The notes under the pieces: model-generated
The model's input: only the letters and a program-made list of their open reading frames with translations
What the model was told of the DNA's origin: nothing
Database searches by the model: none
Made by a program: the position numbers and the translations under genes
Assembly (NCBI GenBank): GCA_046723735.1
Contig: JBKOVB010000114.1
Span: 8,498-72,497 of the forward strand
Source of the DNA: Actinomycetota bacterium
GTDB lineage: Bacteria; Actinomycetota; Actinomycetes; Mycobacteriales; SCTD01
Length of the DNA stretch: 64,000 nucleotides
Reading direction: 5' to 3'
In this document: positions 42,048 through 63,338 of the stretch, in pieces
How the letters are laid out: each line of letters begins with the position of its first letter
Position numbering within the stretch: the first letter of the stretch is position 1

Positions 42048-44201
42048 ATGCCACGCACGGAGGTCCCCCTCAAGCGCGGGCACGGCGTCCGTCCCACCGT
42101 GCCGCGGCTCGACACGACCCTGCGGCGCAGCACCAGGCCCTTCCAGGTGGTCAGCGAGTTCGAGCCCTCGGGCGACCAGCCCGCCGCCATCACGGAGATG
42201 GCGCAGCGCCTCGAGAAGGGCGTCCCCGACGTCGTGCTGCTCGGCGCGACGGGCACCGGCAAGTCGGCCACGACGGCCTGGCTGATCGAGCAGGTGCAGC
42301 GCCCGACGCTCGTGATGGCCCCGAACAAGACCCTCGCCGCCCAGCTCGCCAACGAGTTCCGCGAGCTGCTGCCCCACAACGCGGTCGAGTACTTCGTCAG
42401 CTACTACGACTACTACCAGCCCGAGGCCTACGTCCCGCAGACGGACACCTACATCGAGAAGGACTCGAGCATCAACGAGGAGGTGGAGCGCCTCCGGCAC
42501 AGCGCCACCATGAGCCTGCTGACCCGCCGCGACGTCGTGGTGGTCGCGTCGGTGTCGTGCATCTACGGCCTGGGGACGCCCCAGGAGTACGTCGACCGGA
42601 TGGTGCGGCTCCAGGTCGGCGAGGAGGTCGAGCGCGACCAGCTGCTGCGCCGCCTCGTGGACGTCCAGTACACCCGCAACGACCTGTCCTTCACGCGCGG
42701 CACCTTCCGGGTGCGGGGGGACACCATCGAGGTCTTTCCGGTGTACGAGGAGCTCGCCGTCCGGGTGGAGATGTTCGGGGACGAGATCGAGAAGGTGATG
42801 TCGCTGCACCCGCTCACCGGCGAGGTGGTGGCGGAGCACGACGAGCTGTTCGTCTTCCCCGCCACCCACTACGTCGCCGGCCCGGAGCGGATGGAGCGGG
42901 CCGTCGCCGGCATCGAGGTCGAGCTGGAGGAGCGCCTCACGGTGCTGGAGGGCCAGGGCAAGCTGCTCGAGGCTCAGCGGCTGCGGATGCGGACGACGTA
43001 CGACGTCGAGATGATGCGGCAGGTCGGCTTCTGCAACGGGATCGAGAACTACAGCCGCCACATCGACGGTCGTGGGGCAGGCAGCCCGCCGCACACGCTG
43101 CTGGACTACTTCCCCGAGGACTTCCTCCTCGTCATCGACGAGTCGCACGTGACGGTGCCGCAGATCGGTGGCATGTACGAGGGCGACATGTCCCGCAAGC
43201 GGACGCTGGTCGACCACGGCTTCCGCCTGCCGAGCGCCTGCGACAACCGGCCGCTGAGGTGGGAGGAGTTCCTGGAGCGCACCGGCCAGACCGTCTACCT
43301 CTCCGCCACCCCGGGGCCCTACGAGCTTTCCCGGGTCAAGGACGACGTGGTCGAGCAGGTCATCCGCCCGACCGGCCTCGTCGACCCCGAGATCGTCGTG
43401 AAGCCGACCAAGGGCCAGATCGACGACCTCGTCCACGAGATCCGGCTGCGGGCCGACAAGGGTGAGCGCGTCCTGGTCACGACCCTGACCAAGAAGATGT
43501 CCGAGGACCTGACGGACTACCTGCTCGAGCTCGGCATCCGCGTCCGGTACCTCCACTCAGAGGTCGACACGATCCGCCGGATCGAGCTGCTCAAGGAGCT
43601 GCGGCAGGGGGTCTTCGACGTCCTGGTCGGCATCAACCTGCTCCGCGAGGGCCTCGACCTCCCGGAGGTGTCGCTCGTCGCCATCCTCGACGCCGACAAG
43701 GAGGGCTTCCTGCGCTCGGGCACCAGCCTCATCCAGACGATCGGCCGGGCGGCCCGCAACGTCAGCGGTCAGGTCCACATGTACGCCGACACCGTGACGC
43801 CGAGCATGGCGAAGGCGATCGACGAGACGTCCCGGCGGCGCGCGAAGCAGATCGCCTACAACACCGAGCGGGGGCTCGACCCCCAGCCGTTGCGCAAGAA
43901 GATCGCGGACATCCTGGACGACATCGTCCGGGAGGACCCCGAGCTGGTCGGCGGCAGCGGCCGCAACGTCTCGCGGGGCAAGGCGCCCGTCCCGGGGGCG
44001 GCGGCGCACGTCCCGCGCACCCATGTCGGGGCGCTCAAGGGGATGCCCCGCGCCGAGCTGGCCCAGCTCATCCAGCAGCTGCAGGACCAGATGCACGAGG
44101 CGGCCCGCGAGCTCAGCTTCGAGCTCGCCGCGCGTTTGCGTGACGAGGTCAACGAGCTCAAGAAGGAGCTCAGGGGGATGGACGCCGCGGGGATCCGGTA
44201 G
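42048..44201 (+). CDS. uvrB: Excinuclease ABC subunit B
   Basis: [14 protein letters not shown], Walker [13 protein letters not shown] box (VIDESHVT), helicase motifs and the C-terminal UVR domain ([17 protein letters not shown]). Confidence 0.95.
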
Positions 44202-44892
44202 GTGCAGGGCGGGCCCCTGCCCCGAGCCCCTCACGCAGGGCGATGGTCACCGCCTCGAGGCTGGTGTGCACGCCGAGCTTGGCCAGCACGTTCTGCGCGT
44301 GCGTCCGGACCGTGTTCACGGACAGCCGCAGACGGGCGGCGATCTCCTCGCGGGACAGGCCCTCCGCCATGCCCACGAGCACCTGCCGCTCGCGCCCGGT
44401 CAGCCGCTCGAGCCGGGCGACGGCCGCCGCGTCCTGCTCCCGGACGAGGTTCTGCACGACCTCGCCGAGCACCGCTCTCGGCAGCCACCACTCGCCGTCG
44501 GCGACGGCGCTGATCACCTGGGACACCTCCGCCAGGGGGGCGCTCTTGGGCAACCAGCCGCGCGCCCCGGCGACGACCAGAGCGCCGAGAGCCCGGGTCC
44601 CCTCGTCCGCGGTGAGCACGACCAGCCCGACCTCCGGGTGGCGGCGTCTGACCTCGTCCAGGAACCCGACTTGCCAGGAGCCGGGCTCCACACCGACCAC
44701 CACGACGCGGGGGGCGACGTGCTGGAGCCGGTGCAACGCGTCGTCGGCGCTGCTCGCCGACCAGACCAGACCGGTGCGCGACTCCAGCGCCAGACCCAGG
44801 GCCAGGCCCTCCGCGAACGTGCGCTCGGGGTCGACCACGAGCACATCCACCGTGCCCAGCGGCGCCTGCCGTCTCTCGACGGTCGTCGTCAC
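44170..44892 (-). CDS. LuxR/NarL-family response regulator, atypical (phospho-acceptor Asp replaced by Gly)
   Basis: The C-terminal HTH is [44 protein letters not shown]. In the receiver-like N-terminus, [10 protein letters not shown] aligns to the canonical DLILLDLNMPG. The GTG start overlaps the upstream stop (GTGA). Confidence 0.75.
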
Positions 44893-45521
44893 GAGCAGCA
44901 CGGCAACCGGTCGTGGGGCGCGCGGGCATGCCGGGCGACGTGCGCGACCGCCTCGACGCGCGAGTGCGCCCCCAGCTTGTCGAGGATGGACTGCACGTAG
45001 CTCCGTGCGGTCGACTGCGTGATGCCGAGCTCGCGGGCGATGCCCTCGGTCGACCGAGCGGCGACCAGCAGGGCGAGCACCTCGGACTCCCGGGCGGTCA
45101 GGAAGCGCAGCCGCCAAGCACCGTCTGCGAGCGGCTCCTGTGCCGATGGCGTCAGCTCGAGGGGCACTGGCGCCCCGTGCACCGCCGCGAGCAACCCTTC
45201 CAGGGAGTCGGTGCGAGGCACCACCTGGTGGGCACCCGCCTCGAGCGCGGCACGTCGCTGCTCCCCGTCGTCGGCCGTGGACAGGCAGACGACGAGGGTC
45301 TGCGGCCAGGCCCGCCGTACCCGCCGGACCACCGCCAGCGCGGCAGCGACGTCCGAGCGCAGGCTGATGACCAGCAGGTGCGCCGCCCTGTCGGCGAGGC
45401 ACGCGGCGACGTCGGCCGCGCGCGTGACGACGCTGACCTCGCACAGCCCCTCCCGGCGCAGCGCGAGCCCCAACGACTGGCCGAACATGAGCTGCTCGTC
45501 GCAGACCAAGGCGCTCTCCAT
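44889..45521 (-). CDS. LuxR/NarL-family response regulator, atypical (phospho-acceptor Asp replaced by Ser, conserved Lys replaced by Arg)
   Basis: The HTH is LTARESEVLALLVAARSTEGIARELGITQSTARSYVQSILDKLG. In the receiver-like N-terminus, HLLVISLRS sits at the phospho-acceptor position. A GGGGGAG SD is present. Confidence 0.75.
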   Translation of the reverse strand: MESALVCDEQLMFGQSLGLALRREGLCEVSVVTRAADVAACLADRAAHLLVISLRSDVAAALAVVRRVRRAWPQTLVVCLSTADDGEQRRAALEAGAHQVVPRTDSLEGLLAAVHGAPVPLELTPSAQEPLADGAWRLRFLTARESEVLALLVAARSTEGIARELGITQSTARSYVQSILDKLGAHSRVEAVAHVARHARAPHDRLPCCS

Positions 45522-45561
45522 GGCTCCCCCTCTCGCCCTGACGAGGCCGGGGGAGCGGGGA

Positions 45562-45570
45562 CTGATACGT
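45562..45570 (+). promoter_or_regulatory. Copy 1 of the recurring 9-mer CTGATACGT
   Basis: It lies in the divergent region between the LuxR-type gene (start 45521) and the GT2 gene (start 45663), and is oriented toward the GT2 gene 93 nt downstream. Confidence 0.4.
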
Positions 45571-45662
45571 CAGCCTCCTGCGTTCGTCCTAGTCCTCTTG
45601 CAGGCTCTGCCCGAGGTGGTGCCGATGTCACGGTGGGCGAGAGCCACGTCACGGGAGGGCCG

Positions 45663-46694
45663 ATGGCACGACCGCTCGAGCCCGCGGACGGGCGCGTCTC
45701 CGTCATGATGCCCCTACGGCAGGAGGGGCCGGAGCTGCACCGGGTGCTGGAGGCGGTCACAGGTCAGGACTGCCCGGCGCTCGACCGGATCGTGGTCGCC
45801 GTCGGTCCGAGCCAGGACGGGACGGACGAGGTCGTCCGGGCCTGGGCCGCCCGCGACCCGCGGCTGCTGGTCTTGGACAACCCCGAGGGCATCGTGAGCA
45901 CCGGCCTCAACCGGGCGCTGGAGGCGGTCACGAGCCGTTACGTCGTGCGGATCGACGGTCACTGCCTGGTGCCCCGGAACTACGTGGGTCACCTGCTGCG
46001 GACGGCTGAGCGGACGGGCGCCACCTGCACGGGTCCGCGCCTGCGCACGGTGGGTTCGGGCACGATGCAGCGCGCCATCGCGGCCGCGATGAGCTCGCGG
46101 TTCGGCGTCGGCGGCTCCCGCTTCCGGACCGCCACGCGCTCCGGCTTCGTCGACACCGTGGCCTTCGGGCTCTACGAGCGCGACCTGTTGGTGCAGCTGG
46201 GCGGGTTCCGGCCCGAGCTGGTGCGCAACCAGGACGACGAGCTCAACGCGCGCCTGCGCCGGGCCGGTGGGACCGTGTACCTGGACGCCGACGTGTGCGT
46301 CGACTACTACCCCCGCCGCCGGCTCCGGGCGCTGTGGCGTCAGTACTACGAGTACGGGTACTGGCGCACCGTCAGCGCTCGGTCGTTCGGGGACCGGCTC
46401 GGCCCGCGGCAGCTCGCGCCTGGCGCCTTCGTCGCCGGGCTGGTGGGAGGTCTCGCGGTCACTCTCGCGGGGCAGCCGCTGCCCCTGCTCGTGGCCGTCG
46501 TCGCGTACGGCGGGGTGCTGGCCCTGCTCGTGATGCAGACCCTGCGTCGCACCTCGGACCCCGCCGTGGCGCTGCTCAGCGCCCCGGCAGGCGCCGTGCT
46601 GCACGTGTCGTACGGCTGTGGCCTGTGGCGTTCGCTGCTGCGGCCCGGGATGCTGCGCCCGGCGCGTTCGCCGCAGCAGCAGGCAGGCGGATGA
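45663..46694 (+). CDS. Glycosyltransferase family 2 with C-terminal TM helices
   Basis: A GGGAGGG SD precedes the ATG. VSVMMPLRQEG...DGTDEVVRAW...LDNPEGIVSTGLNRAL...RIDGH...QDDELN, followed by 2-4 hydrophobic helices. Confidence 0.8.
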   Translation: MARPLEPADGRVSVMMPLRQEGPELHRVLEAVTGQDCPALDRIVVAVGPSQDGTDEVVRAWAARDPRLLVLDNPEGIVSTGLNRALEAVTSRYVVRIDGHCLVPRNYVGHLLRTAERTGATCTGPRLRTVGSGTMQRAIAAAMSSRFGVGGSRFRTATRSGFVDTVAFGLYERDLLVQLGGFRPELVRNQDDELNARLRRAGGTVYLDADVCVDYYPRRRLRALWRQYYEYGYWRTVSARSFGDRLGPRQLAPGAFVAGLVGGLAVTLAGQPLPLLVAVVAYGGVLALLVMQTLRRTSDPAVALLSAPAGAVLHVSYGCGLWRSLLRPGMLRPARSPQQQAGG

Positions 46695-48088
46695 CCGTGC
46701 TCCTGCAGGCCGCCAAGCCCCCGCCCCCCGCCCCTCCCGACGCGCGGCGCTCGCCGGCGTGGCCGCTGGTGCTTGTCCCCCTGCTCGTCGTCCCCCTCGG
46801 CTGCCTTGCGTTGCTCGTGTGGCTGCCCGAGATGGGCGGGGTGCGCCTCGCCAGCGCGGTGTTCCTCCTGGTCGCCGTGCTCGTCCTGCTCGTGCGGCCG
46901 CGAGGCCTTCTGTCAGCACGCACGTGGGTGGTCGGCTACCTCGTCCTGCAGTTCCCCGTCCGCGCGCTGTTCCTGCTCACCGCTCCCAAGGAGAGACCGC
47001 CCATCTACGCCGAGGTGTCGCCCGGCGTGGGTCTCGAGCCGGCGTTGGTCACGGCCCTGCTCGAGTCGATCTTGGGCCTGGCGGTGCTCGGGGCCGTCTA
47101 CGTCCTGGGGCACCAGTACTGGCGCCCGCCGACTCGTCCGTCGATGCACGTGGCGCTGCGGTGGCAGAGGGCGTACCTGCTGCTGCTCGTCGGGGCGTTC
47201 ATGCTGCCGATCGAGCTCACCGCCGGCAGCGGCTCGAGCGGTGCGTTCATCATCAGCCTCCCTGGGCTCGCGGCCTCGGGGGCGGCCGCGGTCGTCTGCT
47301 TCGCCTTCGTGCAGTCACCCGGCCGCTGGTGGCCGATCTTCCTGCTCGCGGTCGCCTACACCGCGGCCAGGGTCACCCTGCTCTCGTCGAAGATGGCGCT
47401 GCTCGCGGGCCTGCTCGCCGCGGTCCTCAGCCTGGTCGGCCGGCTGCAGCGGCGACGGGGACGGCTGCCGGTCGTGCGCGGCACGATCGTGGTGCTCGTC
47501 TGCCTGGCCACGGCGTCGTACATCTTCGCCGTGGGCAGCGGCCGCAGCCACGGGCGTGGCGTCGCCGACTCGGTCGGGCAAGGGGCGCAGGCCGCGGTGT
47601 CCCGCAGCTACGGGGTGGACGCCGTGGTGGCCACGAACGAGCACCTCGCCAGGGGGGCGCGGCCGTTGTACGGCCAGAGCTTCGTCGAGATCGTCTACTC
47701 CTGGGTGCCACGCGCGTTCTGGCCGGACAAGCCGAGGTCGTTCTCCATCCGGTACGGCGAGGACGTGTTCTCCTTCACCCAGGGCGTCGGCCGGGAGTTC
47801 TTCGCGCCCAGCTACTCCGGGGAGTGGCTGCTGAACTTCGGGGTGCCCGGGCTCGTCCTGGGCTGGATGTTGTTCGGCCTTGCGCTGGCCCGGGTGGACG
47901 CGCTCGCCTCGATACCCCACCGGATGCTGTGGCTCGCGTCGCTGGTGCACCTCGTCGAGGGGTCGGTGGTGGCCCAGTTCTGGTTGGCGGCGCCGTTCAT
48001 CGTGGGCGGGTACTGGGTGCTGCGCCGTGACGCAGTCGTCCCGGACGCCCTGCGGCTGGCGCCGGTGCCGCTGGAGGCGACCGCTTAG
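46691..48088 (+). CDS. Wzy-like oligosaccharide repeat-unit polymerase / O-antigen-ligase-like membrane protein
   Basis: The ATG overlaps the GT2 stop (ATGA). It has about 10-12 TM helices and one larger loop. There are no catalytic motifs I can name, so the call rests on architecture and context. Confidence 0.55.
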   Translation: MTVLLQAAKPPPPAPPDARRSPAWPLVLVPLLVVPLGCLALLVWLPEMGGVRLASAVFLLVAVLVLLVRPRGLLSARTWVVGYLVLQFPVRALFLLTAPKERPPIYAEVSPGVGLEPALVTALLESILGLAVLGAVYVLGHQYWRPPTRPSMHVALRWQRAYLLLLVGAFMLPIELTAGSGSSGAFIISLPGLAASGAAAVVCFAFVQSPGRWWPIFLLAVAYTAARVTLLSSKMALLAGLLAAVLSLVGRLQRRRGRLPVVRGTIVVLVCLATASYIFAVGSGRSHGRGVADSVGQGAQAAVSRSYGVDAVVATNEHLARGARPLYGQSFVEIVYSWVPRAFWPDKPRSFSIRYGEDVFSFTQGVGREFFAPSYSGEWLLNFGVPGLVLGWMLFGLALARVDALASIPHRMLWLASLVHLVEGSVVAQFWLAAPFIVGGYWVLRRDAVVPDALRLAPVPLEATA

Positions 48089-49350
48089 AGCGTCTCGACG
48101 TTGTCGCCTTTCATGCGGTTCCGCGCGTCGAAGACGTAACGGGCGTGCGCCGTGACGAGGTCGTAGTCGAAGCAGTCGTGGTCGGTCACGAGGACCACGG
48201 CGTCTGCGGCCCGCACCTCGTCCACGGTGAGGTCGACCCGCGTCACGTGCGACGGCACCTGCGCGTCGTGCAGGTGCGGGTCGCAGGCGCGCACCTCGGC
48301 CCCCAGCGCCCGCAGCCGCTCGGCGACGACCGCCCCCGGTGCCTCGCGCGCGTCACCCGTGTTCCTCTTGTACGACAGGCCGAGGAGCAGGACCCGTGCC
48401 CCGTTCAGCGCCTGCTGGCGCCGGTTGAGGCCGAGCATGACGCGGCGCACCACGTGGTCGGGCATGTGGTCGTTGACGTCGTTGGCGAGCTCCACGAACC
48501 GGAACGGGTGGCCGAGGCTCTGGCGCACGCTCCACGACAGGTAGCTCGGGTCGATGGGCAGGCAGTGGCCCCCGACCCCCGGACCAGGGGTGAACGGCAT
48601 GAAGCCGAAGGGCTTCGTCGCCGCGGCCTCGATCGCGGCCCAGATGTCGATCCGGAGGTCCGCCGCGAACATGGCCAGCTCGTTGACCAGCGCGATGTTC
48701 ACGTGCCGGAACGTGTTCTCCAGCAGCTTGGCGAGCTCCGCCTCGCGGGTCGACGGGACGGCCACGGTGCGGCTGACGATGCGTTCGTAGAACGCGCGCA
48801 CACGCTCGAGCGACAGGTGGTCGATCCCTGAGATGATCTTCGGCGTGTTCTCGAGGCGCCACGTCGTGTTCCCCGGGTCGATCCGCTCGGGGCTGTAGCC
48901 GAGGTAGAAGTCGGTCCCCGCGCGCAGCCCGCTGCCGTCCTCGAGGATCGGCCCCACGACCTCCTCCGTCGTGCCGGGGTACGTCGTGGACTCCAGCACC
49001 ACCAGGGCTCCGGGTCGCAGGTAGGGCGCCAGCGTGCGGGTGGCGTGCTCCACGAACGACAGGTCGGGGGCGCCATCCGCGAGCGGGGTGGGCACGGTGA
49101 CCACGGCGGTGTCGAAGTCCGCGCACACCTGCGCGTCGTTCCCGGCGACGAGGCGCCCCGTGGCCAGGCAGGCGGCCAGCACCTCGTCGGGGATGTCCTC
49201 GACGTAGGAACACCCGGCGTTCAGGGCGTCGACCCGCGACTGCTGCACCTCGTAGCCGCCGACGAGGAACCCCGCCTGCGTGGCGCGTACGGCGAGGGGC
49301 AGACCCACGTAGCCGAGGCCGACCACGACGACCTTCTGGGGAGCTGTCAC
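48085..49350 (-). CDS. Nucleotide-sugar 6-dehydrogenase (UDP-N-acetyl-hexosamine dehydrogenase WecC/WbpA/TviB-like)
   Basis: N-terminal Rossmann VVVVGLGYVGLPLA, catalytic GGHCLPIDPSYL and the ELANDVNDHMP motif typical of the HexNAc-dehydrogenase branch. GTGA overlap with the upstream GT4. Confidence 0.85.
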   Translation of the reverse strand: MTAPQKVVVVGLGYVGLPLAVRATQAGFLVGGYEVQQSRVDALNAGCSYVEDIPDEVLAACLATGRLVAGNDAQVCADFDTAVVTVPTPLADGAPDLSFVEHATRTLAPYLRPGALVVLESTTYPGTTEEVVGPILEDGSGLRAGTDFYLGYSPERIDPGNTTWRLENTPKIISGIDHLSLERVRAFYERIVSRTVAVPSTREAELAKLLENTFRHVNIALVNELAMFAADLRIDIWAAIEAAATKPFGFMPFTPGPGVGGHCLPIDPSYLSWSVRQSLGHPFRFVELANDVNDHMPDHVVRRVMLGLNRRQQALNGARVLLLGLSYKRNTGDAREAPGAVVAERLRALGAEVRACDPHLHDAQVPSHVTRVDLTVDEVRAADAVVLVTDHDCFDYDLVTAHARYVFDARNRMKGDNVETL

Positions 49351-51178: not shown

Positions 51179-51353
51179 GAACGGATGCTTACCGGGGGAG
51201 GCGATCCGCGGAGCCTGCACGCGAACTAGTGCTCGTTGAGCCGGGTCCCGTACCGCCGCGTGTATCACGGGGGCGAACCGTGCGCTCTTGTCGAGAGCCG
51301 CATGCTTCGGCGCGCGTCACAGACGGTTGCTTTTGGTTCGCGAGAGGGACGAC

Positions 51354-52061: not shown

Positions 52062-52103
52062 CCAGCCGGGGTCGACCAGCCGTCGACGGATCGAAGGAGG
52101 ACC

Positions 52104-55895: not shown

Positions 55896-55969
55896 GGCGA
55901 AGCTGTCTCCTGAGGGGGGTCGGAGCTATGACCCCCTGTGCTTCGACCAGGTCCCGGAAGCGCTTGACT

Positions 55970-55978
55970 ACGTATCAG
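55970..55978 (-). promoter_or_regulatory. Copy 2 of the recurring 9-mer CTGATACGT (minus strand)
   Basis: The plus strand reads ACGTATCAG. It lies 75 nt upstream of the ATG (55895) of the malectin/beta-helix gene and is oriented toward it. Confidence 0.4.
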
Positions 55979-56066
55979 GAGTGGCACGTCACACTGCGTT
56001 GTCAGGTCGCCCCGGCGCATGCGCGTTCGTCCCAAATACAGTTGCGCGCAAGGGGATGAAGCGGCC

Positions 56067-57305
56067 TCAGCCGTCAACGGCGCTTGCGCGCTTCGTCCCC
56101 TCTGCGACGTCGGCGGCCGTTGCCGGTCGAGTCCGACGTAGCAGGACGTAGCCGACGACGGCGGCCAGCCCCTCGGCGGCGAGCAGGACGACCGGCATCA
56201 CCCAGGAGCGCGCCACAGCGAGCCCCGTCACGGCCGCGCCGATCACCAGGACGGGTGCAAGCATGTTCACGACGATGCGCTGCTTGTCCCGGTACCCGAC
56301 GATGAGGCCGATCTCGACCACGTACTTGGGCCCCCACACCGCGAGCAGCAGGGCACCGAGCGCGGCGTATCCGGCTGCCCCCGTGTAGCTGGGACCGACC
56401 AGCGGCGCGAGCACCGGTTGCCACAGCAGCACCCCTGCACCCACGCCGAGGAGGCCGGGCAGCGACGCGCCGAGCACGACCCGCCCCGACATGGGACGGG
56501 CCCGGGCGAGCAACGGGGGGAGGGCGTTCTGCAGGAGCAGCCACAACGCGTTCGCGGCGGCGGCGGCGGCCCGCATGCCGAGGGCGAACGCACCCGCCGC
56601 CTGCGTGCTGCCGGTGCTGGTCATCGTCGCGAGCGCAAGAGGTACGGCGACCTGTCCCCCGACCCCGGCTGCCCCGAACAGCAGAGAGGTCTGCAGGTGA
56701 CCTTTCCAGGCGCGCCAGGAAGCCACCCAGCGAGGAACTCCGCTCGTCCGGCTCAGGACCAGCATCGCCACCGCCGCGCCCGCGAGCGGCGAGAGCCCGA
56801 AGGCGAGCGCGTAGACCACGGGCTCGGACGGCGGGACGACCACCCACACCGTGAGGCAGCACAGGACGACGGCCCAGTTCGCCGCGCCGAGCTGCACGAG
56901 CTGCCCCCGTGCGCGCAGCCACCAGTCGGGGAACACGGCGTACGCGACGAGGTAGGGGCTCATCGCCAGCAGGAGCCTGCCGTTCTGGGTCGAGCCGGCT
57001 CCGGTGACCAGGAGCAGCAGGACCAGCACGGCGCTCACCGCGACCGCGAGTGCGAGGTACAGGCTGAAGATCTCGCTGCCCAGCCGGCGCTGCTCGGAGC
57101 CGGCGCTCGCTGCGAGGGTCCTGATCGAGTAGCCGGCCTGTCCGAGGTCGACAGCCCACCAGGCGTAGCCGATCCAGCTCAGGGCTACCGCGAAGTACGC
57201 GAACGAGGAGGCGCCGAGCTTGCGCGCGACGAGGACGACGGCCAGGAAGGCGACGAGCTTGGGCAGCCAGTCGGAGACCACCGTCAGCAGCAAGGTCCGG
57301 CGCAA
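56067..57305 (-). CDS. Wzx-type (MOP superfamily) polysaccharide flippase
   Basis: About 12 TM helices with a polysaccharide-biosynthesis-protein N-terminus (LVAFLAVVLVARKLGASSFAYFAVALSW). The proposed TTG start at 57305 has a GAGGA SD 4 nt upstream, but the start is uncertain. Confidence 0.65.
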   Translation of the reverse strand: MRRTLLLTVVSDWLPKLVAFLAVVLVARKLGASSFAYFAVALSWIGYAWWAVDLGQAGYSIRTLAASAGSEQRRLGSEIFSLYLALAVAVSAVLVLLLLVTGAGSTQNGRLLLAMSPYLVAYAVFPDWWLRARGQLVQLGAANWAVVLCCLTVWVVVPPSEPVVYALAFGLSPLAGAAVAMLVLSRTSGVPRWVASWRAWKGHLQTSLLFGAAGVGGQVAVPLALATMTSTGSTQAAGAFALGMRAAAAAANALWLLLQNALPPLLARARPMSGRVVLGASLPGLLGVGAGVLLWQPVLAPLVGPSYTGAAGYAALGALLLAVWGPKYVVEIGLIVGYRDKQRIVVNMLAPVLVIGAAVTGLAVARSWVMPVVLLAAEGLAAVVGYVLLRRTRPATAADVAEGTKRASAVDG

Positions 57306-57360
57306 CGGTTCCTCAGCTCCCTCGGGGGCGTCGTACGAAGAGGAATCCGGGTCGCGTCGC

Positions 57361-57369
57361 CTGATACGT
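57361..57369 (+). promoter_or_regulatory. Copy 3 of the recurring 9-mer CTGATACGT
   Basis: It lies in the divergent region between the Wzx gene and the ATP-grasp gene, 87 nt upstream of the ATP-grasp GTG. It shares the 10-mer CTGATACGTC with copy 1. Confidence 0.4.
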
Positions 57370-57455
57370 CCCCGGCTGAGCCATGTGTATCTATAGCGCG
57401 ACCAGGTGCTCTGCAGGTAAGCACGGCCCTGTTGCGCGGCCGGGAGAGGGGCGAG

Positions 57456-58640
57456 GTGAGCAGCGCTCCTGCCCTCCGGCGCCAACGGAGCAGGCCCGCG
57501 GAGCGGGTGCAACGTGCCCTGCTGCTCGGCGACAGCATGGACATGGCCCATGCGCTCTGGGCCGCCGGTGCGCTGACGACGGTCATCGGGGGCAAGCATG
57601 CCCCCGCCCGCTACTCCAGGCACGGTTTTGCCTGGCTTCCTGACCCGCGGCCCCGCGACGAGGACCTTGTCCGGATGCTTCGTGAGCTGGGGTCCACGAC
57701 CAGCCCGCCCGCCCTGTTCTACGAGACCGACCGCGACCTGCTGTTCGTGTCCCGCAACCGCGAGGCGCTGGGCGTCGGCCTCGCCATGCTGCTGCCACCT
57801 CCGGGTCTCGTGGAGCAGCTGGTCTCCAAGGGCGCCTTCGCCGCGCTTTCCCGACAGCTCGACCTCCCGGTCCCGCAGAGCTGGAGCGTGAACACGACGG
57901 AGTCGGACCCTCTGCCCGAGGGGCCCTACCCGTTGCTCGTGAAGCCGATGGTGCGTGACACGCGGTGGGACCTGGTGGCCCGTGGCAAGGCCGTCGTCGT
58001 CCAGCGGCCGAAGGAACTTGCCCGGCTCATCGAGTCCCTCGCCGAGACCCACGCCGAGGTCGTCGTGCAGGCCTACGTTCCGGGCGAGGAGACCAGGGTC
58101 GAGAGCTACCACGTGTACGTCGACAGCGACGGCGAGGTCGCGGCGGAGTTCACCGGGTGCAAGATCCGGACGCTCCCGCTCGCGAACGGCTATTCCACCG
58201 CGCTGGTGACGACCTGCGAGACCGATGTCCGCGACGTCGGACGCTCCGTCGTAGACGCGCTCGGGCTCGTGGGGGTTGCCAAGCTCGACTTCAAGCGCGA
58301 CCCGCAGGGCAGGCTCTGGCTGCTGGAGGTGAACCCCCGCTTCAACCTATGGCACCACCTGGGCGCCGCGGCGGGTGTGAACATCCCGGCCTTCGTCCTG
58401 GCGGACCTGGCGCGCTCCGAGCGACCCGCTGCTGCCGTGGCCCGACCGGGTGTGTCGTGGTGCAACGTCCCCCGCGACCTCGTGGCCGCCCGGGCCAGCG
58501 GACTCGGGGTCGTCGAGTGGTGGCGCTGGGCGCGCACGTGCGAAGCGGTCACCGGGCTCGAGCTGACCGATCCGCTGCCCTTCTTCCTCGGCAAGCTGCT
58601 GCCATGGGGTGCCGCGCACCTCCACTGGTCGGGGTTCTGA
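57456..58640 (+). CDS. ATP-grasp domain protein (carboxylate-amine ligase-like)
   Basis: LLVKPMVRD...VVVQAYVPGEETRVESYHVYVD...AKLDFKRDPQGRLWLLEVNPRFNLWHHL, an ATP-grasp core with an E-x-N Mg site. The GTG start at 57456 is inferred. Confidence 0.75.
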   Translation: MSSAPALRRQRSRPAERVQRALLLGDSMDMAHALWAAGALTTVIGGKHAPARYSRHGFAWLPDPRPRDEDLVRMLRELGSTTSPPALFYETDRDLLFVSRNREALGVGLAMLLPPPGLVEQLVSKGAFAALSRQLDLPVPQSWSVNTTESDPLPEGPYPLLVKPMVRDTRWDLVARGKAVVVQRPKELARLIESLAETHAEVVVQAYVPGEETRVESYHVYVDSDGEVAAEFTGCKIRTLPLANGYSTALVTTCETDVRDVGRSVVDALGLVGVAKLDFKRDPQGRLWLLEVNPRFNLWHHLGAAAGVNIPAFVLADLARSERPAAAVARPGVSWCNVPRDLVAARASGLGVVEWWRWARTCEAVTGLELTDPLPFFLGKLLPWGAAHLHWSGF

Positions 58641-58642
58641 CC

Positions 58643-59446
58643 ATGCGCTACGCCGTCCTGTCCGACGTCCACGCCAACCTGACCGCGCTCACCGCCGTTC
58701 TCGAGGCGCTCGACGACGTGGACGCCTACCTGTGCACGGGGGACCTCGTCGGGTACGGCCCGAGCCCCAACGAGTGCGTCGAGCTCCTGGCGGCCATCGG
58801 GGCGGTCTGCGTGGCCGGCAACCATGACCTCATCGCGGTGGGCGCGCTGGACGAGACGCAATCGGGTCTGCTGGCGCGGCAGACCCTCGCCTGGACGCGC
58901 CGCGTCATGACCCCTGCCGCCAGGGCCTACTTGCAGGCGCTGCCCCGGACGACCACCGTGGCCGAGCTGCTGCTGGCTCACGGCTCCCCGGAGGACCCTG
59001 AGGAGTACGTCCTCCGGCCGGAGCGGGCCGTCGAGATCCTCGCGAAGGTCGAGGACCCGCAGGTGACCACGGTCCTGCTGGGGCACACCCACCATCAGTG
59101 GGTCGTCGGGGCGGCGGAAGGCGTGCTGCTGCACCGGCGCACGGGCCGGGTCGACCTGGTGCAGGGCCAGCGGTACCTCCTCAACGCGGGCAGTGTCGGG
59201 CAGTCACGGGACGGCGACGCGCTGGCCCGCTTCCTGGTGCTGGACACGACGGAGCGCACGGCCGAGATGAAGGCGGTCGAGTACGACGTGCGCGCCTCCA
59301 GCGCGGCGCTGCGCGCGGCGGGACTCCCCGTGCGTGCTCTGCACGCCACCGACCACTCGCCGCGCGAGCTCGCTCTCGGCGCCCGGCGCCGGCTCCGGCG
59401 GGCGACCGAGCGCTGGACCGGGCGCCCCCTGCGGCCTCGCGTCTGA
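58643..59446 (+). CDS. Metallophosphoesterase (YfcE/MJ0936-like)
   Basis: SDVHAN, GDLVGYGP, GNHD and GHTH motifs appear in the canonical order. It starts 2 nt after the ATP-grasp stop. Confidence 0.85.
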   Translation: MRYAVLSDVHANLTALTAVLEALDDVDAYLCTGDLVGYGPSPNECVELLAAIGAVCVAGNHDLIAVGALDETQSGLLARQTLAWTRRVMTPAARAYLQALPRTTTVAELLLAHGSPEDPEEYVLRPERAVEILAKVEDPQVTTVLLGHTHHQWVVGAAEGVLLHRRTGRVDLVQGQRYLLNAGSVGQSRDGDALARFLVLDTTERTAEMKAVEYDVRASSAALRAAGLPVRALHATDHSPRELALGARRRLRRATERWTGRPLRPRV

Positions 59447-59487
59447 GCCAACCGCCAGGGCAGTCCCACTGGGTGGAACCACAGCGC

Positions 59488-59500
59488 TTACCGCCGGTAA
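59488..59500. promoter_or_regulatory. 13-bp palindrome TTACCG-C-CGGTAA (candidate operator)
   Basis: Perfect 6-bp arms flank one central base, 56 nt upstream of the GT4 GTG at 59556. Confidence 0.35.
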
Positions 59501-59555
59501 CAGGTGCTCGCTACCCTGTGTGCTCCTTTTGTGTCCCCGATCGACAGGAGCGCCG

Positions 59556-60833
59556 GTGCCGGACTCCCCGGTGGCTGCCGACGGCGGCCGCCCCCTTCGC
59601 ATCGCGCTCCTGTCCTATCGGAGCAAGCCGCACTGCGGCGGTCAGGGCGTCTACGTCCGGCACCTGTCCCGGGAGCTCGTCGGGCTCGGGCACGAGGTCG
59701 AGGTGCTGAGCGGGCCGCCGTACCCGTTGCTCGACCCCGGCGTCGACCTGACGCCCTTGCCGAGCCTCGACCTCTACCGCGACCCGGACCCGTTCCGGGT
59801 GCCGTGGCCGCGCGAGTTCAAGACGCTGATCGACGTCCTCGAGTTCGGGATCATGTGCACGGCGGGCTTCCCGGAGCCGCTGACCTTCAGCCTCCGGGCC
59901 CACCGCGCGCTGCGCGACCGCGCCGTGAAGCCGGACATCATCCACGACAACCAGACGCTCGGTTACGGGATGCTGCTCATGCAGCGCGACGGCCTGCCGG
60001 TGATCGCGAACGTGCACCACCCGATCACCGTGGACAAGAGGCTCGACCTGGCCGCGTCACCGCTGCGCAAGAAGTTCTCCAAGTGGCGCTGGTACGGCTT
60101 CCTGGGGATGCAGGGCCGGGTCGTACGCCGGATGCCGACCCTCATGACCGTCAGCGAGAACTCCTTCGACGACATCGTCAGCGACTTCGGCGTCGACCCG
60201 GAGCTCATGCGCGTCATCCCCGTCGGGGTGGAGCACGACGTGTTCGTGCCGCCGACGCTGCCGCGCGTGCCGGGCAGGATCGTCGCGACGGCCAGCGCCG
60301 ACCACCCGCTGAAAGGCATCGTCCCGCTGCTCGAGGCCGTCGCGAAGCTGCGCACCGAGCGCGACGTGGAGCTCGTCGTCGTCGGCAAGGCGCAGTCCGA
60401 CGGCGCCGCGGCCCGCACCGTGGAGCGGCTGGGCCTGAAGGACACCGTGCGGTTCGTCTCCGGCCTGTCGGAGGACGAGCTCGTCGCGACCTTCGGGTCG
60501 GCGCAGGTCGGCGTCGTGCCCAGCCTCTACGAAGGGTTCAGCCTGCCCGCCATCGAGCTCATGTCGTGCGCCACGCCGCTCGTGTGCACCACGGCCGGCG
60601 CGCTGCCCGAGGTCGTCGGCGACGCCGCCCTGCAGGTGCCCCCTGGCGACCCGGAGGCGCTCGCCGCCACGATCAAGCGGGTCCTCGACGACGAGGACCT
60701 CGCCGCCGACCTCGGCGCCCGGGGGCGGGACCGGGTCATGACCCGCTACACCTGGCGCTCCGTCGCCGAGCAGACCGTCGCCTGGTACCGCGACCACCTC
60801 GCCGCCACCAAGGGGGAGGCCCTGCCGTGCTGA
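59556..60833 (+). CDS. Glycosyltransferase family 4 (GT-B)
   Basis: An AGGAG SD lies 6 nt upstream of the GTG. RIALLSYRSKPHCGGQGVYVRHLSREL at the N-terminus and PSLYEGFSLPAIELMSCATPLV (E-x7-E). Confidence 0.85.
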   Translation: MPDSPVAADGGRPLRIALLSYRSKPHCGGQGVYVRHLSRELVGLGHEVEVLSGPPYPLLDPGVDLTPLPSLDLYRDPDPFRVPWPREFKTLIDVLEFGIMCTAGFPEPLTFSLRAHRALRDRAVKPDIIHDNQTLGYGMLLMQRDGLPVIANVHHPITVDKRLDLAASPLRKKFSKWRWYGFLGMQGRVVRRMPTLMTVSENSFDDIVSDFGVDPELMRVIPVGVEHDVFVPPTLPRVPGRIVATASADHPLKGIVPLLEAVAKLRTERDVELVVVGKAQSDGAAARTVERLGLKDTVRFVSGLSEDELVATFGSAQVGVVPSLYEGFSLPAIELMSCATPLVCTTAGALPEVVGDAALQVPPGDPEALAATIKRVLDDEDLAADLGARGRDRVMTRYTWRSVAEQTVAWYRDHLAATKGEALPC

Positions 60834-61561
60834 CCGTCGACTTCGAGCAGTTCCCCGTGGGCCCGGGAGACCGGGTCCTCGACATGGGGTGCGGCGGCGG
60901 GCGGCACGCGTTCGCGCTGTACCGGCGCGGCGCGCATGTCGTGGCCCTCGACTACAGCCACGACGACCTCGTCGAGGTCCGCACCATGTTCGGCGCCATG
61001 GCCGACGAGGGCGAGGTGCCCCAGCACGCGCAGGCCCAGGCGGTCCGCGGCACGGCGTACGCGCTGCCGTTCGCCGACGAGACGTTCGACCGCGTCGTGG
61101 CCGCCGAGGTGCTGGAGCACCTGCCCGCGGACACCGACGCCATTGCCGAGCTGTTCCGGGTGCTCAAGCCGGGTGGCCTGATCGCTGTCACGGTGCCACG
61201 CTGGCTGCCCGAGCAGGTCTGCTGGGCGCTCTCTGACGCCTACCACAACGTCGAGGGTGGCCACGTCCGCATCTACAAGGGCACCGAGCTCGTGCGACGG
61301 CTCGAGGACACCGGGCTGGTCTTCGAGGGGCGGCACCACGCGCACGGGCTGCACTCGCCGTACTGGTGGCTGAAGTGCGCGGTCGGGGTGTCGAACGACG
61401 GCAACCCCCTCGTGAAGGCCTACCACCGGCTGCTGGTCTGGGACATGGTCAAGCAGCCGCTCCTGACCCGGGTCGCGGAGCGGGTCCTGCAGCCGCTGGT
61501 CGGCAAGTCGCTCGTCGTCTACCTGCGCAAGCCCGAGAGGACCGCCCGTGCGGCGGCCTGA
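60827..61561 (+). CDS. Class I SAM-dependent methyltransferase
   Basis: The GTG overlaps the GT4 3' end. VLDMGCGGGRH (motif I), FDRVVAAEVLEHL and VLKPGGLIAVTV. Confidence 0.8.
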   Translation: MLTVDFEQFPVGPGDRVLDMGCGGGRHAFALYRRGAHVVALDYSHDDLVEVRTMFGAMADEGEVPQHAQAQAVRGTAYALPFADETFDRVVAAEVLEHLPADTDAIAELFRVLKPGGLIAVTVPRWLPEQVCWALSDAYHNVEGGHVRIYKGTELVRRLEDTGLVFEGRHHAHGLHSPYWWLKCAVGVSNDGNPLVKAYHRLLVWDMVKQPLLTRVAERVLQPLVGKSLVVYLRKPERTARAAA

Positions 61562-62624
61562 GCTGCGCGGCCTGCCGGGGGTCCTCACCCGCGAGCAGCT
61601 GCAGCAGACCGTCGACGCCATCGCCGCAGTGCAGCAGCCGTGCGGCTCGCTGCCCTGGCCCGACGGGCACACCGACGCCTGGGACCACGTCGAGTGCGCG
61701 ATGGTCCTCACGCTCGGCGGGAGGCTCGAGGAGGCGCAGCAGGCGTACGCGTGGCTCCGTCGTACCCAGGCCACCGACGGCTCATGGGCGACGTCGTACG
61801 ACCAGCTCGAGGTCCTCGACCCGATGGTCGACGTGAACCAGTGCGCCTACGTCGCCGTGGGCATCTGGCAGTGGTGGATGGTGACTGGCGACCGGTCGCT
61901 GCCAGAGCAGATGTGGCCGCACATCCGGCGTGCCCTCGACCTGGTGTGCGACATGCAGCACCCGGGCGGGCACATCCTGTGGGCCCACGACGCCGGGGTG
62001 CCGCGCCAGGAGGCGCTGCTCACCGGATCCTCGTCGATGTACCAGTCGCTGCGCTGTGGCATCGCGCTCGCGGAGCTGCTCGGGGAGCCCCAGCCGGAGT
62101 GGGAGCTCGCGGCCGGGCTGCTGCAGCACGCGGTGGCGCACCACCCCGAGGTGTTCGCCGACAAGAGCCGGTTCTCGATGGACTGGTACTACCCGGTGCT
62201 CGGCGGCGCTGTCCGGGGCAAGGCGGCCCAGTCGTTGTTCGACAAGCACTGGGACACCTTCGTCGTACCAGGCCTCGGCGCGCGGTGCGTCAGCGACCGG
62301 CCGTGGGTGACGGGTGCCGAGACGGCCGAGCTCGCCATGGCGCTGCTCGTCGCCGGCGACCCGGACCGGGCCCGGCAGATGCTCCTCGACGTCCAGCACC
62401 TCCGCCACGACGACGGCTCGTACTGGACCGGTCTCGTGTACGACGAGGACGTCCGCTGGCCGGAGGAGCGCAGCTCCTGGACCGCCGCTGCCATGGTGCT
62501 CGCGGCCGACGCCCTCGCGGGCGGCCCGACGCTGGCGCTGTTCGCCGGCGACGACCTCCCGACCGGCGTGCTGCTCCCCGAGGACGTCTGCCTCGAGGAC
62601 AGCGCCCACTGCACGGCGCTCTGA
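61548..62624 (+). CDS. Prenyltransferase / squalene-oxidase-repeat ((alpha/alpha)6 barrel) protein, cytoplasmic
   Basis: Repeated Q/DGSW-type motifs (QATDGSWATSY, HDDGSYWTGL, QQPCGSLPW) are typical of terpenoid-cyclase/prenyltransferase-fold repeats. There is no signal peptide, and it overlaps the methyltransferase by 14 nt. Confidence 0.6.
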   Translation: MRRPELRGLPGVLTREQLQQTVDAIAAVQQPCGSLPWPDGHTDAWDHVECAMVLTLGGRLEEAQQAYAWLRRTQATDGSWATSYDQLEVLDPMVDVNQCAYVAVGIWQWWMVTGDRSLPEQMWPHIRRALDLVCDMQHPGGHILWAHDAGVPRQEALLTGSSSMYQSLRCGIALAELLGEPQPEWELAAGLLQHAVAHHPEVFADKSRFSMDWYYPVLGGAVRGKAAQSLFDKHWDTFVVPGLGARCVSDRPWVTGAETAELAMALLVAGDPDRARQMLLDVQHLRHDDGSYWTGLVYDEDVRWPEERSSWTAAAMVLAADALAGGPTLALFAGDDLPTGVLLPEDVCLEDSAHCTAL

Positions 62625-62629
62625 GCGCT

Positions 62630-62671
62630 GCCGTCCGGACCGGAGTCGTGTTGCGCCCCGGTCCGGACGGC
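62630..62671. terminator. Perfect 14-bp-stem hairpin between convergent genes (bidirectional terminator candidate)
   Basis: GCCGTCCGGACCGG, a 14-nt loop, then CCGGTCCGGACGGC. It begins 6 nt after the 62624 stop and lies 38 nt from the 62709 stop. Confidence 0.6.
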
Positions 62672-62708
62672 GTCGGTGGGGCGTGGGGCGACTCCCGTCC
62701 TCGACGGG

Positions 62709-63338
62709 TCAGGTGACCAGCGCGTCCTGACGGCGCAGCACCCGCAGCGACCCGGTCGCGGAGACCTGCTCGAAGGCGCCGCTGTCGACGGCCCGGCACA
62801 CCACGTGCCACGGCGGCCGGCCGCCGTCCTCGGGGTCGGGGAACACGTCGTGCACGGCGAGCAGCCCGCCCACGACCACGTGCGGCGCGAAGGCGGCGTA
62901 GTCGTGCTGCGCCACCTCCTCCGTGTGGTTCCCGTCGAGGAACAGGAACGTCAGCGGCGAGGACCACCAGCGCGCGACCTGCTGCGTGGTGCCGACGACC
63001 GCAGTCACCACGTCGTCGAGGCCCGCGTCCCACAGCGTCCGGCGCAGCGACGGCAGCGTTTCCAGACGGCCCGTGTGCGGGTCGACCAGGGAGGCGTCGT
63101 GCCACTCCCAGCCGGGCTGGTTCTCCTCCGAGCCGCGGTGGTGGTCCAGCGTTGCCAGGTGGGCGCCAACCTCACGGGCGGCCGCACCAAGGTGCACCGT
63201 CGACTTGCCGCAGTAGGTGCCGACCTCGAGCCACAGCCCCGGCGCCGCCCCCAGGGCGGCCGCGTGCAGGGCCGCCGCCTCGTCGTCGGGCAGGAAGCCC
63301 TTGGTGGCAGCGGCCACGGCGAGCAGGTCGGGGGTCAC
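62709..63338 (-). CDS. Class I SAM-dependent methyltransferase (Methyltransf_24 / O-methyltransferase-like)
   Basis: LEVGTYCGKSTVHL (motif I), LFLDGNH and VVGGLLAVHDV. The GTG at 63338 has a GAGAGGA SD. Confidence 0.7.
   Translation of the reverse strand: MTPDLLAVAAATKGFLPDDEAAALHAAALGAAPGLWLEVGTYCGKSTVHLGAAAREVGAHLATLDHHRGSEENQPGWEWHDASLVDPHTGRLETLPSLRRTLWDAGLDDVVTAVVGTTQQVARWWSSPLTFLFLDGNHTEEVAQHDYAAFAPHVVVGGLLAVHDVFPDPEDGGRPPWHVVCRAVDSGAFEQVSATGSLRVLRRQDALVT

Follow-up and report, generated by a model that had tools for sequence, protein, structure and literature searches.

We analysed a window of 64 kb from the genome of an Actinomycetota bacterium (64,000 nucleotides of contig JBKOVB010000114.1, GenBank assembly GCA_046723735.1), in which 18 genes separate uvrB from a gene for a metallo-beta-lactamase (MBL)-fold protein. 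Genes were called by GC3, the G+C content of third codon positions, because the high G+C content of the window (72%) makes raw lists of open reading frames (ORFs) uninformative. The 49 genes obtained in this way were assigned to protein families by Pfam and NCBIfam profile scans. The interval is bounded by two conserved flanks, uvrB on the left (42048-44201, plus strand; Pfam UvrB_inter, UvrB and UVR domains) and a partial MBL/ODP-fold gene on the right (63447-63998, plus strand; Lactamase_B and ODP matches). Between them, and numbered here g31 to g48, lie two LuxR regulators, then 12 polysaccharide genes and finally four genes for a 3-O-methylmannose polysaccharide (MMP). Two glycan systems that are unrelated to each other adjoin here, the MMP cluster and an accessory locus of the Wzx/Wzy type. 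An earlier note on this DNA had also counted 18 genes between uvrB and the MBL gene, a number with which the GC3 calling agrees, and nearly all the families that it named were borne out by the profile scans, those of Wzy, Wzz and Wzx with weak or borderline scores. It had taken the whole for a single 19-kb island, a view that we abandon, since the last four genes are the MMP cluster, a normal neighbour of uvrB in this lineage.

Genes g45 to g48 (59556-63338) are assigned as the characterised four-gene cluster for MMP, ManT-MeT3-MmpH-MeT1, because of their PDB matches, the shared gene order and the retention of the MmpH catalytic residues. The first, g45 (59556-60833, plus strand), matches the alpha-(1->4)-mannosyltransferase ManT of M. 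hassiacum over residues 14-416 (PDB 7QSG, E 7.6e-132) and is 90-91% identical to the ManT of two long metagenome contigs, L170 and L172, in which manT comes next after uvrB. It is followed by g46 (60827-61561, plus strand; Methyltransf_11, 77 bits), a class I S-adenosylmethionine methyltransferase gene that overlaps both manT and mmpH, matches the M. hassiacum pMeT3 in position and is annotated here as the putative MMP 3-O-methyltransferase, MeT3; it has at least 7995 homologues at E <= 1e-30, and the best 120 of these are all proteins from metagenomes or metagenome-assembled genomes (MAGs). The product of g47 (61548-62624, plus strand; 358 amino acids), which had been described as a prenyltransferase-fold protein, turned out to be a glycoside hydrolase, the endo-alpha-(1->4)-mannosidase MmpH (PDB 7QSJ, E 8.6e-126). 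Alignment to 7QSJ showed that it keeps the equivalents of Asp47, Asp50 and Glu262, within D-x-W-D and W-V-T-G-A-E-T-x-E stretches, and has Gln at the position of Phe102; the two aspartates and the glutamate have been shown to be important by mutagenesis (PMC9883506). The last gene, g48 (62709-63338, minus strand), encodes the 1-O-methyltransferase MeT1 (PDB 6G7D, E 3.8e-70; Methyltransf_24). Its start at 63338, the coordinate at which the earlier note had ended its block, is the correct one and yields 209 amino acids, the same as in the L170 and L172 orthologues.

The order manT-meT3-mmpH-meT1 is that of the published M. hassiacum cluster, in which MHAS_04402 is ManT, 04403 pMeT3, 04404 MmpH and 04405 MeT1 (PMC9883506), and it recurs in L015, L081, L170 and L172. 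The genes that the earlier note had placed at the end of its list are all there, in a different sequence from the one it gave: GT4, methyltransferase, (alpha/alpha)6-barrel protein, methyltransferase. Its statement that the combination was not a characterised cluster stands for the 12-gene polysaccharide set and fails for g45-g48, which belong to a known cluster. MMP is a cytoplasmic polymethylated polysaccharide, unrelated to export by Wzx and Wzy. Four genes that would otherwise be labelled as a generic glycosyltransferase, methyltransferase or hypothetical protein are in this way placed in the MMP pathway, and genomic evidence for polymethylated polysaccharides now reaches the abundant uncultured Frankiales/Mycobacteriales of soil.

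The limits of the accessory locus were set by comparison with the same two contigs, L170 and L172. DNA homology to both ends at about 44212, some 11 bp past the uvrB stop codon, and restarts at about 59546, some 10 bp before the start of manT, which delimits an inserted polysaccharide island of ~15.3 kb (g31-g44, ~44213-59545). UvrB of these contigs is 90% identical to that of the window (90-92% at the amino-acid level when the MAG contig L087 is included), yet they have no island; their uvrB-manT spacer is 88-115 bp, and the gene order is rpsA-coaE-uvrB-manT-meT3-mmpH-meT1 followed by MBL/TerC, with L172 continuing into uvrA-uvrC. In L170 a 74% identical orthologue of the MBL gene comes next after MeT1. 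In L015 the four MMP genes lie near uvrB. In this uncultured lineage (Mycobacteriales in GTDB, 'Frankiales' at NCBI) the MMP cluster is normally the uvrB neighbour. The earlier note had supposed the block to be accessory and not core, and the junction comparison across relatives upholds this for the island.

The island is syntenic in three uncultured Frankiales/Mycobacteriales MAGs, of which one is represented by contigs L081 and L085, the second by L086 and the third by L087. In L087, from a Mycobacteriales MAG with a 92% identical UvrB, the polysaccharide genes follow uvrB directly, without the regulator pair. In L081 the polysaccharide genes are succeeded by four acylation genes, the MMP cluster, TerC and an MBL gene. 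The four acylation genes (L081 12174-15946), between the phosphoesterase gene and manT, encode an acyl-CoA dehydrogenase, an acyl-AMP ligase, an acyl carrier protein (ACP) and a GNAT protein, a set of the N-acylation type. The locus of this Frankiales MAG is larger than that of the window in other respects too, with three beta-helix paralogues, a PAP2 gene between the dehydrogenase and GT4 genes that the window does not have, and, upstream of the regulator pair (L085 1-7118), genes for an Asn synthase, a GT4, an epimerase, two PF14099 polysaccharide lyases and a methyltransferase.

A uvrB scan of genome contigs, from which L001, L002 and L015 were taken, returned mostly distant taxa among the matches listed, the best with 81-82% identity. 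L001, the closest GTDB representative among the matches listed (UvrB 81% identical), has a different polysaccharide cluster after uvrB (13026-21554), comprising an epimerase, DUF6308, Bac_transf, a GDP-mannose-dehydratase-like protein, an NPCBM plus beta-helix protein and a Wzz-BY-kinase fusion. L002 (UvrB 82% identical) has TerC next after uvrB, and none of the island genes was found at the ~25 other actinobacterial uvrB loci that were examined. Between carriers the island proteins are 53-82% identical, compared with 82-93% for the flanking UvrB, ManT and MmpH, and mean GC3 is ~0.92 in the island against ~0.95-0.96 in its flanks. Pfam matches of the island proteins include neither integrases nor transposases, and there are no boundary repeats and no tRNA at the island borders, the only tRNA of the window being at 20560-20634; a mobile island was rejected on these grounds. 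We read the island as accessory, a surface-polysaccharide locus whose content varies while its place in the chromosome is fixed and which is probably exchanged by recombination through its conserved flanks, and the site downstream of uvrB may be a general hotspot for polysaccharide loci. The uvrB-manT junction resembles the fixed sites of O-antigen and capsule loci in that it is empty or holds either this island or a different cluster, which makes it useful for typing and for following surface diversity in MAGs.

A second small insertion lies on the other side of uvrB, between coaE and uvrB, where a gene at 40474-41943 encodes a 489-amino-acid protein with a hydrophobic N terminus and no Pfam or NCBIfam match. 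The coaE-uvrB gap is only ~45 bp in L170 and L172, and L001 has an unrelated protein of 371 amino acids there, with no Pfam match.

The polysaccharide genes of the island begin with g33 (45633-46694, plus strand), a membrane-anchored glycosyltransferase of family GT2 (PF00535, 66 bits) with a C-terminal hydrophobic segment at residues 261-301; the solved structure closest to it is 6YV7, a membrane GT2. Its gene overlaps by an ATGA that of g34 (46691-48088, plus strand), a Wzy-like repeat-unit polymerase with ~12 transmembrane (TM) segments that is weakly supported. We call it Wzy because of this topology, its TIGR04370 matches and its context. The g34 match to TIGR04370 has 26 bits and E 4e-6, below the cut-off of 40; in 5.8 billion clusters the family numbers only 27 members, each of MAG or metagenome origin, and TIGR04370 is the sole match in 19 of 26 members, with a best E of 9.4e-10, no member of the whole family giving a Pfam match. 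In a distant version of the cluster the g34 homologue is the only polymerase candidate, beside a Bac_transf priming transferase, a Wzz (PF02706) and a Wzx. The flippase of the island is g42 (56067-57305, minus strand), of the Wzx-type MOP family with ~12 TM segments; it scores 28.6 bits against PF01943, for which the cut-off is 28.2, and its orthologues carry PF01943. Chain length is assigned to g38 (51354-52061, plus strand), a Wzz-like polysaccharide co-polymerase (PCP) with no kinase partner, which from a corrected start at ATG 51354 has two TM helices; it reaches 52 bits against TIGR01006 (cut-off 296) and 21 bits against GNVR, also below cut-off, and the gene at the equivalent place in the distant cluster version matches PF02706 Wzz. 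The pathway looks Wzx/Wzy-dependent from these flippase, polymerase-like and PCP assignments, as the earlier note had proposed. A synthase-dependent pathway driven by the GT2 was rejected, the GT2 being small and Wzx and a PCP being present.

The dehydrogenase g35 (48085-49326, minus strand; TIGR03026, 389 bits) is a UDP-N-acetylhexosamine (HexNAc) 6-dehydrogenase of the N-acetylmannosamine (ManNAc)/N-acetylglucosamine (GlcNAc)/N-acetylgalactosamine (GalNAc) type. Its PDB matches are 4R16 (1.6e-67), Cap5O (3.2e-54) and 3G79 (1.9e-52), compared with 1.4e-38 at best and mostly 1e-26 to 1e-28 for UDP-Glc dehydrogenases, the closest structures being those of UDP-ManNAc and NDP-GalNAc dehydrogenases. 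Two further transferases are present, the GT4 g36 (49347-50357, minus strand; PF00534, 74 bits) and the CgeB-like GT-B enzyme g39 (52104-53090, plus strand; Glyco_trans_1_2, PF13524, 94 bits), together with a NodB-type polysaccharide deacetylase, g37 (50411-51178, minus strand; PF01522, 73 bits), whose start is approximate and whose orthologues have 256-271 amino acids. A secreted protein, g41 (54189-55895, minus strand), combines malectin (80 bits) with a right-handed beta-helix like that of polysaccharide lyase family PL9 (Beta_helix, Pel9A-like_beta_helix); with its start corrected to ATG 55895 a signal peptide becomes visible (MRCTKKK...LANA), and there are one to three paralogues in relatives. 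We regard it as a candidate polysaccharide lyase or hydrolase. Several genes of the interval are tightly coupled, as had been noticed earlier: besides the ATGA overlap of g33/g34 there are overlaps of 7 bp (g45/g46) and 14 bp (g46/g47) and spacers of 2-4 bp at g43-g44 and g39-g40.

The product of the island is most likely an acidic HexNAc-uronic-acid heteropolysaccharide, partly de-N-acetylated and further decorated; a HexNAc-uronic acid is indicated because g35 matches UDP-HexNAc dehydrogenases and because a PL9-like beta-helix protein is present. The GT2, GT4 and CgeB-like transferases would assemble a repeat unit of about four sugars, including the HexNAc-uronic acid made by the g35 dehydrogenase, which would be flipped by Wzx and polymerised by the Wzy-like protein to a length set by the kinase-less PCP, and the secreted malectin/beta-helix protein would trim or release the acidic polymer. 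Where this polymer ends up is a separate matter. Micrococcus luteus teichuronic acid combines a ManNAcA-type dehydrogenase with priming of the WecA/TagO type, a logic that the island could share, and its PCP has no tyrosine kinase; on this basis the product could be an anionic wall polymer of the teichuronic-acid type, anchored on peptidoglycan or arabinogalactan, and not a released exopolysaccharide (EPS) or capsule. We think this somewhat unlikely, however, since no LytR-CpsA-Psr (LCP) ligase occurs among the Pfam matches of the island, and a secreted lyase-like beta-helix protein and an accessory pattern of presence and absence are more typical of EPS and capsule loci. Such an outcome would touch only the final location of the polymer and would be compatible with the rest of the Wzx/Wzy-dependent account.

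The two regulators at the left end of the island, g31 (44170-44901, minus strand; GerE, 57 bits) and g32 (44889-45521, minus strand; GerE, 53 bits), are atypical members of the LuxR/GerE family resembling response regulators, with Response_reg scores of 27.7 bits (below cut-off) and 31 bits, respectively. In an alignment with canonical regulators, which have Asp at this position, the phospho-acceptor is replaced by Gly in g31 and by Ser in g32; the L085 and L086 orthologues also have no phospho-acceptor Asp, with Ser at the g32 position, and the Pfam scan found no kinase gene adjoining the pair. These proteins are predicted to be atypical, phosphorylation-independent regulators.

A candidate binding site for them was found in the hexamer TGATAC, which occurs in five copies in the whole window, 5/5 of them intergenic, and is the only rare hexamer common to all four island promoter regions. 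Its island copies lie in the divergent promoter region between the regulators and the GT2 (45563-45568, plus strand; conserved in L085 and L086), in that between the deacetylase and Wzz (51262-51267, minus strand), 76 nt upstream of g41 (55972-55977, minus strand) and in the divergent region between Wzx and the ATP-grasp gene (57362-57367, plus strand; conserved in L081). L081, L085, L086 and L087 together contain ten more, every one of them intergenic and in or beside the cluster, and the island-less L170 and L172 have no copy. The consensus of the motif is CCTGATAC-R-Y, and CCTGATAC is present in every island promoter region. The two regulators are predicted to bind this motif, and the sub-operons that share it are probably co-regulated by these two adjacent, phosphorylation-independent LuxR-type proteins. 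A variant, AGATAC, facing wzx is conserved in the Wzx/ATP-grasp intergenic region (window 57390-57400; L081 ~9930), where it forms an inverted pair with TGATAC. We rejected TGATAC as a sigma-factor element, as it is neither a SigA -10 (no TANNNT) nor a -10 of the sigma-28 type (no TAAA -35 upstream). We also rejected a companion TAGTSC box: three genomes have it 19-21 nt downstream in their regulator/GT2 region, but in the other promoter regions its placement is inconsistent.

Three island genes that remain to be described may form a tailoring module. The first of them, g40 (53095-54207, plus strand, start approximate), encodes an Acetyltransf_6/FemAB-like transferase (PF13480, 60 bits; TIGR03019, E 1.8e-7) with a weak match to the FemX structure 6SNR (E 0.031). 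The second, g43, with its start corrected to 57507 (57507-58640, plus strand), encodes an ATP-grasp carboxylate-amine ligase of the COG3919 'D-aspartate ligase' type (product P0001, 377 amino acids) with Pfam matches to PF15632, Dala_Dala_lig_C (PF07478) and ATP-grasp_3 (PF02655). Its family has >1320 homologues at ~45-60% identity, often auto-named 'D-aspartate ligase'. The AlphaFold2 (AF2) model of g43 (pLDDT 95) has as its top folds the L-amino acid ligase 3VOT, PurK, PylC and RizA, a fold search that settles the superfamily only, leaning to amino-acid ligases. The third gene, g44 (58643-59446, plus strand; Metallophos_2, 65 bits), is coupled to g43 and encodes a calcineurin-like metallophosphoesterase whose closest PDB entry, 3RQZ (4.9e-35), is uncharacterised, with weaker resemblance to enzymes of the diadenosine tetraphosphate (Ap4A) hydrolase type. 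PDB sequence searches with g43, g40 and g44 gave generic or uncharacterised relatives only, and exact-sequence look-ups of P0001 and of a Geodermatophilus homologue, P0008, returned no record.

We surveyed the neighbourhood of 80 metagenomic ATP-grasp loci with a median length of 5.9 kb. Of 62 informative loci, 23 have a g44 homologue as the next gene after the ATP-grasp gene, and of 53 loci, 13 have a FemAB-like gene as the one directly before it. In eight of nine checkable loci with both a FemAB-like and an ATP-grasp gene, the FemAB-like gene is preceded by a small Bac_transf priming transferase, and one protein, P0092, is an ATP-grasp plus Acetyltransf_6 fusion. Blastococcus has the trio too, within another polysaccharide cluster, and an Acetobacteraceae MAG has it standing alone beside a PIG-L deacetylase. 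A literature search found no characterised polysaccharide cluster that combines an ATP-grasp protein, a FemAB-like protein and a metallophosphoesterase. By analogy with FemX and the D-aspartate ligase Aslfm acting on lipid II, we tentatively propose, as a possibility, that the three genes represent a widespread uncharacterised form of glycan tailoring that puts an amino acid or short peptide onto a lipid-linked amino sugar, and that in the island it is switched on with the rest of the locus by the two phosphorylation-independent LuxR regulators through CCTGATAC. The NodB deacetylase would expose an amine on the lipid-linked unit, and the FemAB-like protein and ATP-grasp ligase would then acylate the freed amine, probably with an amino acid.

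This proposal leaves the phosphoesterase without a role, which it would have if g43 and g44 acted like Cj1438C and Cj1435 of Campylobacter jejuni. The ligase would then couple a phosphorylated amine or amino acid to the uronic-acid C6 carboxylate as an amide, and the phosphoesterase would strip off the phosphate; no de-N-acetylated amine would be acylated. Precedent exists, in that a Campylobacter ATP-grasp enzyme amidates a uronic acid with a phospho-amine and dephosphorylation comes next (PMC11800379); the island has a uronic-acid-forming dehydrogenase, and its ATP-grasp gene is tightly coupled to the phosphoesterase gene, a pairing that recurs in the 23 of 62 loci given above. We nevertheless judge this unlikely for the island. 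The ligase is not TupA-like, matching PF15632, Dala_Dala_lig_C and ATP-grasp_3 instead, the phosphatase is of a different superfamily (calcineurin-like, not HAD), no pyridoxal phosphate (PLP) enzyme for a phospho-amine is present and the surroundings of the 80 metagenomic homologues yielded no dehydrogenase homologue. A FemAB-like protein is both the recurrent partner and the fusion partner, and enzymes of that type have amines as their substrates.

A priming enzyme is missing from the island. The earlier note had found no WbaP/WecA-type transferase there, and this is correct: none of the 49 called window proteins contains a Bac_transf or Glycos_transf_4 domain, a six-frame tblastn of the window with three Bac_transf proteins found nothing, and the three syntenic MAG copies have no priming transferase either, so that the absence is kept in 4/4 copies of the cluster. 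The distant cluster version, which makes special (formylated or aminated) sugars, has its own Bac_transf gene beside the Wzy homologue; the island has no genes for special first sugars. Wzy-dependent loci with GlcNAc as the first sugar classically use an unlinked WecA, as in the E. coli O-antigen paradigm, and loci of this kind are commonplace. Mycobacterial arabinogalactan is likewise primed by WecA. The window encodes an AftD-type GT-C arabinofuranosyltransferase (26870-31039, plus strand; PF11847, 815 bits), which suggests an arabinogalactan-type wall. In the island pathway an unlinked WecA-type GlcNAc-1-phosphate transferase would prime the polyprenyl carrier and, by analogy, the absence of a priming gene is the normal state for loci served in this way; we do not regard it as unusual.

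The same absence from all four copies could be taken as a sign of self-sufficiency, with an island protein (the candidates are the GT2 g33 and the CgeB-like g39) starting synthesis on the lipid carrier in a non-canonical way that makes WecA and WbaP unnecessary. With its C-terminal membrane segment g33 resembles a minimal membrane GT2, and it is translationally coupled to the polytopic g34, which has no recognised fold match. However, GT2 enzymes move sugars and not sugar phosphates, the gene for a PAP2 polyprenyl-pyrophosphate phosphatase-like protein in the cluster of two relatives points to ordinary undecaprenyl-pyrophosphate chemistry and the distant version uses an ordinary Bac_transf transferase beside its Wzy homologue. 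Since loci without a priming gene that are served by WecA are in any case commonplace, we consider a self-sufficient island very unlikely.

That all 18 genes form one 19-kb Wzx/Wzy-dependent island, with the final GT4, two methyltransferases and alpha/alpha-barrel protein decorating the same exported polymer, is hardly credible: the genes are contiguous, g43-g47 share a strand, the g44-g45 gap is only 110 bp and the two parts are adjacent in the Frankiales MAG too, but there, in L081, four further genes lie between them, g45, g47 and g48 match M. hassiacum MMP enzymes with E values of 1e-70 to 1e-132, the MMP genes occur by themselves, next to uvrB in L170 and L172 and near it in L015, and between genomes they are 82-93% identical as against 53-82% for the island genes.

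Several observations count against parts of the account given here. The Wzy, Wzz and Wzx calls come with weak or borderline HMM scores, and an AF2 model of g34 (pLDDT 80) has no fold match in the PDB. No UDP-GlcNAc 2-epimerase is present, so that the uronic acid could be GlcNAcA, ManNAcA or GalNAcA, the uronic acids of the three HexNAc sugars. The fifth copy of TGATAC lies outside the island, 30 nt upstream of the MeT1 start (63368-63373, minus strand), and L087 has TGATAC but no regulator pair beside its cluster. The chemistry of the tailoring module is drawn from family membership and gene neighbourhood only, and tblastn near the 80 metagenomic ATP-grasp genes found no deacetylase or dehydrogenase homologue. 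Weighing these points, we hold the explanation as a whole, an MMP cluster and an inserted Wzx/Wzy locus with the product, priming and regulation described, to be likely. As for the copy of the hexamer upstream of MeT1, it could be there by chance or reflect cross-regulation of MMP capping with the surface polysaccharide.

The context of the interval is the actinobacterial polA-rpsA-coaE-uvrB neighbourhood. Upstream, positions 1-24954 hold housekeeping genes, among them a hisF-like gene, two ABC exporters, hisI, trpE-trpC-trpB-trpA, lgt, VIT1, gltB-gltD and pyk, as well as genes for a CHAP-domain protein, tRNA-Leu(CAA) (20560-20634), an ANTAR response regulator and a GNAT protein, and polA. A second group of glycan genes lies between polA and rpsA (25483-37235). 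It consists of a Polysacc_synt flippase-like gene (25483-26694, minus strand), the AftD-type gene, an ORF of 591 amino acids with no Pfam match (32225-34000, plus strand), a GT4 (33997-35103, minus strand), a PorA-like protein (36231-37235, plus strand) and a methyltransferase; the corresponding position in L170 is occupied by AftD, an acyltransferase and PorA. The gene call leaves a 1.2-kb gap at 30975-32165, in which an ATG ORF of 396 amino acids on the minus strand overlaps the end of the AftD gene.

Compared with known systems, g45-g48 are closest to the M. hassiacum MMP cluster, which they resemble in their ManT, MmpH and MeT1 matches, in the class I methyltransferase between manT and mmpH and in gene order. 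They differ from it in lying directly downstream of uvrB, in the replacement of MmpH Phe102 by Gln and in their host, which is an uncultured actinomycete of the Frankiales/Mycobacteriales type and no Mycobacterium. The island shares with the PEP-CTERM/exosortase (XrtA) EPS loci a FemAB-like protein, a polysaccharide deacetylase, a chain-length determinant, GT4 'stp' transferases and a LuxR regulator of the EpsA type, and the Frankiales relative adds an Asn synthase, an acyl-AMP ligase and an ACP to this XrtA-like gene content; scores against the XrtA EPS models TIGR03019, TIGR03006, TIGR03007, TIGR03088, TIGR04063 and TIGR03020 are all far below cut-offs, and the window encodes no exosortase. 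The tailoring module has two counterparts. Like the glucuronamide module of C. jejuni HS:2 (the C-terminal ATP-grasp amidoligase of Cj1438 with Cj1435), it places a ligase-phosphatase pair in a locus that makes a uronic acid, but the HS:2 module has TupA-like, HAD and phospho-amine PLP enzymes (PMC11800379), whereas here the phosphatase is calcineurin-like and PLP enzymes are absent. FemX/FemAB and the ATP-grasp D-aspartate ligase Aslfm, known enzymes that attach amino acids at a free amine of glycan precursors linked to a lipid or nucleotide, are paralleled by the FemAB-like g40 and by g43, whose homologues are auto-annotated 'D-aspartate ligase'; similarity to them is low (FemX, E 0.031), and g40 and g43 belong to a Wzy-type locus instead of a peptidoglycan pathway.

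The island as a whole can be set beside the O-antigen and capsule loci of the E. coli type that are served by an unlinked WecA. Both have a flippase, a polymerase-like protein, a chain-length protein, several glycosyltransferases and a nucleotide-sugar dehydrogenase with no priming transferase, and both occupy a fixed site between housekeeping genes, with variable content and no mobility genes. The island is distinguished by its actinomycete host, its short kinase-less PCP, a Wzy-like family of only 27 sequences, the extra set of deacetylase, FemAB-like, ATP-grasp and phosphoesterase genes, its secreted malectin-beta-helix protein and its two atypical LuxR regulators. Neither part of the interval is categorically new, the island being restricted to its lineage but otherwise conventional and the MMP cluster already characterised, and a degree of novelty attaches only to the tailoring module and to the small regulon that is predicted. 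Beside the known systems the island offers two testable leads, a recurrent ATP-grasp/phosphoesterase/FemAB-like module and a compact predicted regulon.

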